The notes under the pieces were generated by a model. The model did no database searches. It saw only the letters and a list, made by a program, of their open reading frames with translations, and was not told the DNA's origin. Shown in pieces: positions 1,274-3,820 of a stretch of DNA of 7,368 nt. This DNA is from a virus (taxonomy: Duplodnaviria; Heunggongvirae; Uroviricota; Caudoviricetes), in IMG/VR virus record IMGVR_UViG_2609460005_000002; one strand, given 5' to 3'. Position 1 is the stretch's first letter. Every line of letters begins with the position of its first letter. Made by a program: the position numbers and the translations under genes.

Positions 1274-1489
1274 ATGACGCTTGAGCGAATCAGCGCCTTT
1301 ATCACGTATTGCATCGCCGTCGTGCTGGCCTGGCTGGGCGATTTGTCCATCAAGGATGCCTCAACGCTGGGCGGCCTGATGATTGGTGTGCTGATGCTGG
1401 CTATCAACTGGTACTACAAACACAAAGCCTACCAGCTTCTGCGCGACGGGCAGATCTCGCGGGAGGACTATGAATCCATCAATCGTTAA
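1274..1489 (+). CDS. Holin, small class II-like with two predicted transmembrane helices
   Basis: 71-aa product with two hydrophobic segments (about residues 7-22 and 31-47) and a charged C-terminal tail (KHKAYQLLRDGQISREDYESINR). It lies directly upstream of, and overlaps, the endolysin gene. It is shorter than the P2 gpY prototype, so orthology to Y is not claimed. Confidence 0.7.
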   Translation: MTLERISAFITYCIAVVLAWLGDLSIKDASTLGGLMIGVLMLAINWYYKHKAYQLLRDGQISREDYESINR

Positions 1490-1982
1490 ACGCTGCCTTG
1501 TCGGGGCCGTGCTGGCTATTGCTGCCACGCTGCCGGGTTTTCAGCAGCTTCACACCTCCGTGGAGGGGCTGAAACTGATTGCCGATTACGAAGGCTGTCG
1601 TCTGCAGCCGTATCAGTGCAGCGCGGGTGTCTGGACCGACGGCATTGGTAATACATCTGGCGTCATTCCAGGCAAAACCATTACGGAACGACAGGCAGCG
1701 GAAGGGCTGATCTCCAACGTGCTGCGTGTGGAGCGGGCGCTGGAAAGATGTGTGAAGCAACAGCCGCCACAAAAGGTGTATGACTCGGTGGTGTCGTTTG
1801 CCTTCAACGTGGGGACAGGCAATGCCTGCAGCTCCACGCTGGTGAAATTGCTCAATCAGCGGCGCTGGGCGGATGCGTGCCGACAGTTGCCGCGCTGGGT
1901 TTATGTGAAAGGTGTGTTTAATCAGGGGCTGGATAACCGCCGTGCGCGGGAGATGGCCTGGTGTTTACAGGGAGCAAACTGA
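1470..1982 (+). CDS. SAR endolysin (T4-type lysozyme fold, GH24), P21 R / P1 Lyz family
   Basis: The N-terminus is weakly hydrophobic and Gly/Ala-rich (CLVGAVLAIAATLPGF), typical of a signal-anchor-release domain. The catalytic region reads E41-G-C43…C50…T56 (DYEGCRLQPYQCSAGVWTDGIGNT). The downstream motif SFAFNVGTGN…STLVKLLNQ…RWVY is recalled as conserved in P21 R-like lysozymes. GGGAGG lies 4 nt before the ATG. Confidence 0.9.
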   Translation: MNPSIVKRCLVGAVLAIAATLPGFQQLHTSVEGLKLIADYEGCRLQPYQCSAGVWTDGIGNTSGVIPGKTITERQAAEGLISNVLRVERALERCVKQQPPQKVYDSVVSFAFNVGTGNACSSTLVKLLNQRRWADACRQLPRWVYVKGVFNQGLDNRRAREMAWCLQGAN

Positions 1983-1983
1983 A

Positions 1984-2361
1984 ATGAAAAAGAAAGTAAT
2001 CAGCGGGCTGTTTCTGATGTTATGGATGGGGCTGTTAATCGAAGCAATGGTGTATCCGCAGGGGATTTTTCCGGTACTGGCAGCGTCCGGTGTCTGGGTA
2101 GCCTGTCTGCTGACATGGGCGGTAATTCCGGTAGCACTGGCTGCGTTAATTAAGAATGGCCCGCTCTGGCAGGAGTTGAGGGCATCTTTGCTGAAGACAA
2201 TTACCCGAAAAGAAAACGTATTTATCAGCTGGGTGATGCGATTGCTGATTGTCGTAAGTCTCGCCTGGACGGGGTGGGCTATTACCCTGGTCTTTTATCT
2301 ACTGACCGTTATTGCCTTCTGGATCACCCGTAATCAGATGGCGCAACAGGTAGCAGCATGA
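1984..2361 (+). CDS. lysA: LysA-like polytopic membrane protein (putative lysis timing / antiholin-like factor)
   Basis: ATG at 1984 is preceded by GGAG (1971-1974). The 125-aa product has 3-4 hydrophobic helices (LFLMLWMGLLIEAMVY; VLAASGVWVACLLTWAVIPVALAALI; LLIVVSLAWTGWAITLVFYLLTVIAFWI). It sits between the endolysin and lysB, as lysA does in P2. The ORF-track start at 1912 lies inside the endolysin gene and was not used. Confidence 0.65.
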   Translation: MKKKVISGLFLMLWMGLLIEAMVYPQGIFPVLAASGVWVACLLTWAVIPVALAALIKNGPLWQELRASLLKTITRKENVFISWVMRLLIVVSLAWTGWAITLVFYLLTVIAFWITRNQMAQQVAA

Positions 2362-3313: not shown

Positions 3314-3752
3314 ATTGCAGAAGGTGGACGACTGGCTGAGTGCCTTGCTGGCGAATCTGGAGCCAGCCGCAAGAAGCCGTATGATGCGCCAGCTGGCGCA
3401 GGAATTGCGCCGGACACAGCAGCAGAATATCAGGATGCAGCGCAATCCAGATGGCAGCAGTTATGAACCGCGCAGGGTAACAGCACGCAGCAAGAAGGGG
3501 CGCATCAAACATCAGATGTTTGCAAAGCTGCGCACCACAAAATACCTGAAAACTGCCGCCAGCGCCGACTCTGCCAGCGTACAGTTTGAAGGCAAGGTGC
3601 AGCGTATTGCCCGTGTTCACCATTACGGCCTGCGTGATCGCGTCAGTCGCAAAGGACCGGAGGTCCGTTACGCAGAGCGCCGCCTGCTGGGTGTAAATGA
3701 TGATGTTGAGGCAATGACCCGCGACATGATTCTGCAATGGCTGGCGGGGTGA
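3306..3752 (+). CDS. S: Tail completion protein, P2 gpS-like
   Basis: GTG start at 3306 overlaps the R stop by 8 nt. The 148-aa product is basic; its position after R and before the V promoter matches P2 order. Confidence 0.8.
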   Translation: MAELQKVDDWLSALLANLEPAARSRMMRQLAQELRRTQQQNIRMQRNPDGSSYEPRRVTARSKKGRIKHQMFAKLRTTKYLKTAASADSASVQFEGKVQRIARVHHYGLRDRVSRKGPEVRYAERRLLGVNDDVEAMTRDMILQWLAG

Positions 3753-3755
3753 TCT

Positions 3756-3775
3756 TTGTATCAGCACTGATACAA
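3756..3775 (+). promoter_or_regulatory. Late-promoter activator site (Ogr/Delta-family zinc-finger activator) upstream of V: TGT-N12-ACA dyad
   Basis: A perfect inverted repeat TTGTATCA-GCAC-TGATACAA (3756-3775) contains TGT (3757-3759), 12 nt, then ACA (3772-3774). It lies in the 68-bp S-V gap, where P2 carries its PV late promoter. The dyad is centred about 55 bp upstream of the V ATG. Confidence 0.6.
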
Positions 3776-3820
3776 GTTGCAGCACTGCCGCCTTTCTTCC
3801 CCTGATGGCAACCTTTCCCT

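Follow-up and report, generated by a model that had tools for sequence, protein, structure and literature searches.

We analyzed a stretch of 7,368 nucleotides from a virus of the class Caudoviricetes (IMG/VR record IMGVR_UViG_2609460005_000002), which we will call the window, and in particular the lysis genes that begin at position 1274. These are very probably the lysis block of five genes that is standard in P2-like prophages of the Fels-2 type (Felsduovirus, Wadgaonvirus, and relatives) and that lies between genes X and R. It comprises a small holin, a signal-arrest-release (SAR) endolysin, a homologue of LysA from phage P2, and two spanins, and its mechanism can be proposed from homology. 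A preliminary description of positions 1274-2361 had argued that the holin and the endolysin differ from those of P2 and might reflect a module swap. The difference from P2 is real, but it is old, widespread, and already described. The cassette is a rediscovery of an ordinary, annotated, published, and common Fels-2-type set.

The window is the late-gene run of a P2-like prophage, with every gene on the + strand. The gene order is M' (partial), L, X, holin, endolysin, lysA homologue, lysB, lysC, R, S, V, W, J, I, and the start of H. The features of the lysis block, and its left flank, are:

1274-1489, + strand: predicted class II holin, 71 amino acids, HP1/S21 superfamily (PF16080, PHROG 20)
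1289-1339, + strand: predicted helix 1 of the holin (residues 6-22, ISAFITYCIAVVLAWLG), strongly hydrophobic and not SAR-like
1358-1417, + strand: predicted helix 2 of the holin (residues 29-48), with an invariant G34 and a conserved NWYY(K/R) end
1470-1982, + strand: predicted SAR endolysin, 170 amino acids, a GH24 lysozyme of the P1 Lyz type (PF00959, E = 3e-39)
1494-1541, + strand: putative SAR anchor of the endolysin, C9-F24 (CLVGAVLAIAATLPGF), just after K7 and R8, with Cys9 equivalent to Cys13 of P1 Lyz
1590-1637, + strand: predicted catalytic and caging motif of the endolysin, E41-G-C43-x6-C50-x5-T56, from the alignment to 1XJT/P1 Lyz
1984-2361, + strand: lysA homologue, 125 amino acids, with four predicted transmembrane helices (NF038378, PHROG 162)
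2358-2786, + strand: lysB, predicted inner-membrane spanin, Rz-like (PHROG 89, E = 3e-45)
2629-2919, + strand: lysC, predicted outer-membrane lipoprotein spanin, Rz1-like (PF23793, E = 2e-14)
1067-1270, + strand: gene X, a tail/baseplate protein (PF05489, E = 2e-34), the conserved left flank of the lysis cassette
603-1067, + strand: gene L, to the left of X

Comparison with the window's list of open reading frames (ORFs) confirms the ORFs and coordinates in the preliminary description, which left out the third gene in the interval (1984-2361). The start codons at 1274, 1470, and 1984 are preceded by Shine-Dalgarno sequences (GGGA, GGGAGG, and GGGAG, respectively), and the conserved N-termini of homologues also support all three.

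At the nucleotide level, the window is 96-97% identical to Escherichia phage 500465-1 (Wadgaonvirus, Peduoviridae), to Klebsiella phages 4LV2017 and KP12, and to many Klebsiella and E. coli prophages. Several complete E. coli chromosomes contain 100% identical copies of the holin-endolysin stretch. The whole lysis block is 80-93% identical to that of Fels-2 in amino acid sequence. The order of the genes is the same in Fels-2, SopEPhi, and the Wadgaonvirus phages (500465-1, 4LV2017, and KP12), with holins that are 80-100% identical to the window's, endolysins that are 92-98% identical, and spanins that are 80% identical. (Both the holin, at 80%, and the endolysin, at 92%, are at the low end of these ranges in Fels-2.) Fels-2 does differ in that it has a very divergent lysA allele in two ORFs, and about a third to a half of the relatives lack lysA.

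The flanking genes follow the order of P2, as had been claimed: by BLASTP, L, X, LysB, LysC, R, and S are all 35-61% identical to the P2 proteins, versus 80-93% for Fels-2. For example, X is 61% identical to X from P2 and 93% identical to X from Fels-2. P2, and also 186 and PSP3, share the position of the operon between X and R and have homologous LysA, LysB, and LysC. However, P2's Y is a three-helix class I holin (PF04550) and is unrelated to the window's holin, and P2's K, a lambda-R-like enzyme that is soluble, has no match in Pfam, is described by PGAP as GH104 or GH24, and is unrelated to the window's endolysin. Similarly, BLASTP found no significant similarity of P2 Y/K, 186 orf24/P, or PSP3 orf9/10 to the window's holin or endolysin. 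The window's pair is not a Y/K cassette.

The window's pair is common, without being the rule. A homologue of gpX is present in 508 of 50,697 phage records, and, among all of these records, 129 contain a Y-type holin and 83 contain the window's type. The idea of a swap would have been refuted had the pair been the standard content at this position in most P2-like genomes, but these counts indicate that it is not. Among 5,426 complete genomes of E. coli, the holin-endolysin stretch was found in 1,031 and P2's Y-K in 1,498 (at the megablast level).

These genes have been annotated before. NCBI's PGAP names the products "HP1 family phage holin" (for an identical protein), "lysozyme", "DNZ54_00345 family protein", LysB, and LysC. 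In phage Midge (with CPT locus tags), the products of the homologous cassette are named "holin class II", "SAR endolysin", "putative antiholin", i-spanin, and o-spanin. In phage KP12, the proteins peg.318-320 are identical to the three proteins of the window at 100% (KP12.peg.320, the holin), 98.2% (KP12.peg.319, the endolysin), and 96.8% of positions. A 2023 paper about KP12 reported structural resemblance to P1 Lyz (1XJT), conservation of the SAR domain, and overlapped spanins of the P2 type, and it also looked for a partner pinholin (PMC9902359). That the lysis genes of P2-like phages can differ from P2's at this position was noted in 2010 for phages of Burkholderia (PMC3091744). (The record for KP12 is filed under Vequintavirinae, yet the contig is P2-like.)

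Predicted functions of the five genes

The holin belongs to Pfam family PF16080, the HP1 holin family (36.7 bits, with a cutoff of 28.8), as do all 11 diverse members of its family that we compared to this model. It scores just below the cutoff for PF04971, or P21 S (23.2 bits, with a cutoff of 26), and it matches PHROG 20 (E = 2e-26), which also includes S21 and the HP1 holin. When we searched for proteins using a diverse alignment of the holin, the matches listed were close relatives only, all from PF16080. Its hydropathy shows two hydrophobic segments, at residues 6-22 and 29-48, so the topology prediction that had been suggested as a check gives two helices. These are separated by a loop of six residues (DLSIKD) and are followed by a charged tail with five basic and four acidic residues, and the 3' end of the gene overlaps the endolysin gene by 20 nucleotides. 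With two predicted helices, a short loop, a charged C-terminal tail, and a location beside the endolysin gene, the protein is classified as a class II holin. The claim that this is a two-helix holin of 71 residues and not a Y-type holin also holds up: P2 Y matches PF04550 and the window's holin does not.

Haemophilus phage HP1 gives PF16080 its name, and its Lys protein is another GH24 enzyme with a hydrophobic anchor at the N-terminus and an EGC...C motif. Despite the name of the family, the HP1 holin is only weakly similar to the profile of the window's holin (hhalign probability of 11%). Also, HP1's cassette follows the tail tube gene, while the window's cassette follows X.

The best relative of the endolysin with a solved structure is P1 Lyz (1XJT, E = 3e-26; 37% identity), and this match fixes its predicted fold. 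The block EGCR.PY.C.AGVWTDGIGNT is conserved between the two proteins. The putative triad is E41, C50, and T56, which follows the pattern E-x8-(D/C)-x5-T, and C43 is two residues past the glutamate; the spacing of E41/C43/C50/T56 is the same as for E42/C44/C51/T57 of P1 Lyz. According to the account of Xu et al. 2005 that is given in PMC9025707, a disulfide cages the catalytic cysteine of P1 Lyz while the enzyme is tethered to the membrane, and a cysteine in the SAR helix frees it after release. The window's endolysin has the corresponding cysteines of this subtype, with C9 in the putative SAR helix and a caging C43 to pair with the catalytic C50. V6, K7, C9, E41, C43, C50, and T56 never change across 51 distinct homologues (53-98% identity), although other positions of the anchor do. 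The homology to P1 Lyz and the invariant cysteines argue that the endolysin is of the SAR type, as had been proposed.

The N-terminus of the lysozyme might instead be a cleavable Sec signal peptide, so that the enzyme would be secreted and controlled in some other way. The anchor has a mean Kyte-Doolittle hydropathy of 2.08 over 15 residues, and by hand counts, its uninterrupted core is just 13 residues and it is 44% G/A/T. The sequence A-I-A at residues 16-18 could, in principle, be a site for signal peptidase, and it counts against an uncleaved anchor. But cleavage would remove Cys9, which is invariant along with C43 and C50, and this invariance fits the mechanism of Lyz. Besides the homology to P1 Lyz, for which the SAR mechanism is established (Xu et al. 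2005, as described in PMC9025707), a free and active lysozyme that was secreted would cause premature cell death. We consider a signal peptide to be very unlikely. K7, R8, and the segment CLVGAVLAIAATLPGF are observed, and it is from the invariance of Cys9 that we infer an uncleaved anchor.

The only published test of activity for a near-identical enzyme is for KP12.peg.319 (L170, 1097-1609), and it is a complication for our account of the endolysin. The cloning primers that were printed for KP12.peg.319 do not fit either end of peg.319 or of the window's gene, even if up to 4 mismatches are allowed, and the forward primer is identical to the one for an unrelated gene from KP1 (PMC9902359). 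Because of this mismatch, the reported lytic spot test should not be taken at face value.

We also noticed that the RefSeq start codon for the Fels-2 endolysin (L002, 2697-3206; GTG, giving VAVLAIAATL...) drops the conserved MNPSIVKRC, which is in frame upstream. ON470620 has the same short start.

The third gene, at 1984-2361, is a homologue of lysA. The protein scores 122 bits against NCBIfam model NF038378 (with a cutoff of 40), which is similar to the scores for LysA from P2 (121 bits), for the protein that is called a "putative antiholin" in phage Midge (149 bits), and for a Fels-2-type allele (126 bits). It also matches PHROG 162 (E = 6e-43, versus 2e-67 for P2 LysA), and it has no match in Pfam. 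The window's protein, P2 LysA, and the proteins from Midge and the Fels-2 alleles are also tied together by successive BLAST hits and by YPQ and GW motifs that they share in a multiple alignment. The stop codon of lysA overlaps the start codon of lysB (ATGA). Because this gene is lysA, the P2 order of Y-K-lysA-lysB-lysC is retained, and the difference is limited to the first two genes.

By analogy to P2, the product of lysA is probably a regulator of lysis timing or an antiholin. The database record for P2 lysA states "nonessential; affects timing of lysis", and a nonessential role in timing is also described in PMC3091744. The lysA slot is empty in 27 of 51 species-level loci. We also scanned viral contigs from IMG/VR with the diverse alignment of the holin, which yielded 80 contigs, all with a 100% identical holin. 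Where the slot could be scored, lysA was present in about 44 of 71 contigs and absent from about 27, and in those the stop codon of the endolysin gene overlaps the start codon of lysB. Since lysA is missing from many intact cassettes, it is accessory and apparently dispensable, in line with the P2 record.

A second holin, or a factor that releases the SAR endolysin, would also be a small membrane protein with several helices within a lysis cassette, and the family's presence beside unrelated classes of holins (Y in P2 and class II here) would be easy to understand if the four-helix protein were one of these instead of an antiholin. However, about half of the intact cassettes lack this gene, so it is not an essential hole-former, and the nonessential, timing-related role of lysA in P2 (P2 record; PMC3091744) also argues against this idea, which we consider to be improbable.

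The lysA gene is the only locally variable piece of the block, in that close relatives either lack it or have a very divergent allele. Similarity to Fels-2 vanishes exactly over positions 1990-2357, where Fels-2 has a highly divergent lysA in two ORFs (L002, 3211-3586) that correspond to the two halves of PHROG 7356 (positions 1-61 and 76-124). Thus, lysA of Fels-2 is split or frameshifted. We considered whether 1990-2357 was a non-homologous replacement relative to Fels-2, but we rejected this because the NCBIfam model and the linked BLAST hits identify a split, divergent lysA. Relative to the window, contig L100 has a clean indel of about 378 bp at lysA, and the presence of lysA is polymorphic even among loci with identical holins (L100, L115, L145 at 3709-3712, L011, L013, and others).

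Two other observations concern the LysA family. It accompanies both class I holins (Y of P2) and class II holins, which would be odd for an antiholin that is specific to one holin. And PHROG 162 labels this membrane protein as "endolysin", and this label has been carried into NC_001895, NC_049342, and NC_047818, including for lysA of P2 itself, so the cassette seems to have two endolysins.

The last two genes, lysB and lysC, encode a predicted two-component spanin: a type II inner-membrane protein and a lipoprotein, with a lipobox (LTLSGC), whose gene overlaps that of its partner. The lysC gene also runs into gene R. LysB is 80% identical to LysB from Fels-2 and 35% identical to LysB from P2 (over a BLAST alignment of 79 residues), and LysC is 39% identical to LysC from P2.

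By homology, we propose that the block works as follows. The endolysin would be exported by Sec and would stay tethered to the inner membrane through a weak anchor, the SAR helix at its N-terminus. While tethered, it would be inactive, as for P1 Lyz, with the catalytic Cys50 in a disulfide with Cys43. Meanwhile, the class II holin would accumulate in the membrane, trigger at a set time, and collapse the membrane potential. The SAR helix would then exit the bilayer and Cys9 would attack the Cys43-Cys50 bond, which would free the active site to degrade the cell wall, and the LysB/LysC pair would disrupt the outer membrane. The LysA homologue would only tune the timing and would be dispensable.

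Exchange of the cassette between P2-like backbones

To see which genes occupy this slot, we collected 80 loci with gpX homologues, with one genome per species, and we classified the downstream genes. All of the Fels-2-like backbones, and related ones whose holins are as little as 37% identical, pair a class II holin with a SAR lysozyme (50 species-level loci). A comparison with named phages, which had been suggested as a check, shows that Fels-2 has the same pair as the window and that P2, 186, and PSP3 have the Y/K type.

Direct evidence that the two genes move together comes from 186-like prophages. In six of them (L076-L080 and L084), the backbone is close to 186 or PSP3 (84-99% identity for L, LysB, R, and S), but the holin in the slot is of class II, with about 31% identity to the Fels-2 holin, and the endolysin is a SAR lysozyme that shares 61-66% identity with the window's. 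In four of these prophages (L077, L078, L080, and L084), there is also a lysA that is similar to P2's LysA. In contrast, L075 and phage 186 itself (L004) have Y/K in the same slot. When L077 is compared to 186, a region of 91-93% nucleotide identity ends about 30-40 nucleotides before the stop codon of X and resumes about 35 nucleotides into lysB, and the 1.18 kb between these breakpoints are unrelated. These breakpoints show that the pair moves as a unit, with the 3' end of X as the left recombination junction and the 5' end of lysB as the right one in these relatives. This supports the general statement in the preliminary description that pairs of holins and endolysins are exchanged as cassettes.

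Whether the window itself contains a module swap depends on the time scale. It is very likely, as part of the same explanation that we favor for the block overall, that this pair replaced Y/K, or was replaced by it, through recombination at the ends of X and lysB, which are conserved, and that this occurred long ago, at the level of lineages. A swap is thus apparent for lineages, since 186-like backbones carry either pair, but there is no sign of a recent event in this window. If the P2-like or 186-like ancestor of this very phage had recently gained a foreign cassette, then the exchange of the same unit on 186-like backbones would be a precedent. But nucleotide identity between the window and Fels-2 is 87%, without any break, from position 1 up to the end of the endolysin gene (1989), so the holin, the endolysin, and the upstream genes are all equally close to Fels-2; identity is 83% from 2358 on. 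The GC content is about 0.57-0.58 across the holin and endolysin genes, with no step at the borders of the cassette, and every Fels-2-like locus has this pair. A recent swap in this phage therefore has hardly any probability.

Other kinds of cassettes also occupy the slot. In Yersinia and Xenorhabdus, we found a lambda-S-type holin with an M15 peptidase, and in Photorhabdus, a lambda-S-type holin with an unassigned enzyme of 131 amino acids. In Photorhabdus viridis (L069, 2691-3492), the slot after X contains an S21-like holin of 87 amino acids whose helix 1 is rich in G/S/A (ATYGSAGLIAFFAG). Its partner is a GH24 SAR lysozyme that has an anchor at the N-terminus and a triad of the form E-x8-D-x5-T. 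This pair looks much more like the pinholin and R21 of phage 21 than the window's pair does.

Many Photorhabdus loci (L052-L056, L058, L059, L061, L072, L074, L081, L083, L085, and L086) have a gpX homologue that is 55-70% identical and lack the P2-type neighbors (L, holin, endolysin, and lysB). In L055 and L072, the baseplate genes V, W, and J directly follow the gpX homologue. Such loci may be clusters of the tailocin type instead of prophages.

Pinholin or large-hole holin

We lean slightly towards the view that the holin is pinholin-like, in that it may form small holes or be needed only for depolarization. The preliminary description held that this could not be decided from the sequence, and the evidence does point both ways.

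Several lines of evidence suggest a relationship with S21, the pinholin of phage 21. Comparison of the profile for the holin family with S21 (using a query that we verified to be 100% identical to the protein from phage 21) indicates remote homology (hhalign probability of 93%, E = 3.5e-7). The N-terminal E(R/K)IS of the family aligns to DKIS of S21, and helix 2 aligns with the pore-forming second transmembrane domain (TMD2) of S21. The N-terminus of the window's holin ahead of helix 1 (MTLER) is net neutral, as is S21's, which would suit an N-terminus that has to cross the membrane. Both phages have a two-helix holin of 71 amino acids beside a GH24 SAR lysozyme.

The choice of partners also hints at a pinholin. 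We surveyed the partners of holins in P2-like prophages. This type of holin sits only beside SAR GH24 lysozymes, across 51 species-level loci, about 74 viral contigs that extend as far as the endolysin gene, and phage records. In about 125 loci, with holins as little as 29% identical, we found no soluble endolysin beside it. In contrast, the partners of Y-type holins are soluble K-type or M15 enzymes, and the partners of lambda-S-type holins are M15 or another soluble enzyme. More broadly, genes for SAR endolysins usually adjoin genes for pinholins (PMC9025707; PMC9239132).

Other observations weigh against a pinholin. Helix 1 has the hydropathy of an ordinary membrane anchor: its mean Kyte-Doolittle value is 2.12, its summed Hessa dG is -0.56, and across 41 distinct homologues of the holin, the Kyte-Doolittle value ranges from 1.4 to 2.3. 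For S21, every 17-residue window within the first transmembrane domain is below 1.0, so the earlier statement that helix 1 is more hydrophobic than the SAR helix of S21 was correct. Similarly, 35% of the residues of helix 1 are G/A/S/T, versus about 55% for S21 (by hand count). Using hydropathy as a proxy, the window's holin lacks the weakly hydrophobic, SAR-like first helix of S21. Hole formation by S21 requires that helix 1 exit from the membrane. Helix 1 of S21 also differs from the window's in being rich in G/S/A and in having a six-residue insert. In the window's holin, helix 2 has few polar residues that could line a pore. Whereas S21 has a dual start (S71/S68), the window's holin has a single start: there is no in-frame start codon between the stop codon of X and 1274, and no second Met before helix 2, so a dual-start antiholin is absent. 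The exclusive pairing with SAR lysozymes may be due to plain linkage within one ancestral cassette. Furthermore, a SAR endolysin of the P1 Lyz type also works with a canonical large-hole holin, LydA (PMC9025707), which implies that the partner enzyme does not determine the size of the hole. Finally, our searches of the full-text literature did not find any published experiment on this type of holin.

Much of this evidence would be explained if the protein were a canonical class II holin that makes large, nonspecific holes, with a pairing with SAR endolysins that is historical and not obligatory. A strongly hydrophobic helix 1, a single start codon, and the example of P1 Lyz with LydA would all be expected. 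The block also has a separate regulator of the LysA type, as does P2, whose Y is a canonical holin, and the homologue from phage Midge is labelled as "holin class II" and not as a pinholin. Yet the remote homology to S21 would not be expected, and neither would the lack of any soluble partner in those 125 or so loci, given that two or more kinds of soluble enzymes are found beside Y-type holins, and likewise beside lambda-S-type holins. We regard a canonical holin as a plausible but somewhat doubtful explanation. A third idea is that the holin, as a relative of S21, might make depolarizing pinholes without helix 1 ever leaving the membrane, with the timing set by a separate LysA that acts regardless of the type of holin, instead of by a dual-start isoform. 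This seems unlikely, though it deserves mention because of what it would imply (see below).

Neither phage 21 nor P1 matches the window in full. For phage 21, the endolysin R21 has an E-D-T triad and is controlled sterically, while the window's endolysin has an E-C-T triad and a putative cysteine cage. P1 Lyz, besides being the closest relative with a structure, shares the cysteine in the SAR helix and the equivalent of the Cys44/Cys51 pair, with identical spacing; but its partners in P1 (LydA, LydB, and LydD) are unrelated in sequence to the window's holin, and P1's lysis genes are spread over several operons. We considered the P1 pinholin LydD in particular as a relative of the holin and rejected it (hhalign probability of 0.15%).

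Neighboring genes and implications

Within and around the cassette, we searched for internal promoters, terminators, RNA families, and repeats, and found nothing above chance. Downstream, the gap between S and V is just 68 nucleotides (3753-3820), which implies that orf30 of P2 and the control region that flanks it are absent here. Based on comparison with R from Fels-2 (VNKPQSLR...), the start codon of gene R is probably the GTG at 2882 and not the TTG at 2861 that was selected by the ORF finder. We also found that a contig of 3.2 kb that is described as "MAG: Bacillota bacterium" (JAEWTL010000006.1; L007) contains L, X, and holin genes that are 98-100% identical to the window's. This contig is most likely a mis-binned fragment of an enterobacterial prophage.

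Beyond annotation, the cassette has little significance. The comparison does provide a clean natural example of a holin and an endolysin that move jointly from one P2-like backbone to another, where the junctions lie in X and lysB, and it exposes errors in the databases, namely short starts for endolysins and a LysA that is called "endolysin". If a relative of S21 does make pinholes while its first helix stays in the membrane, then pinholins would have a second gating mechanism. LysA proteins, which occur with class I Y as well as with class II holins and are missing from half of the loci, would then not act by binding one particular holin. Overall, the holin is a very common relative of S21 whose first helix looks like a permanent anchor, and this bears on how general the topological-switch model of S21 is.

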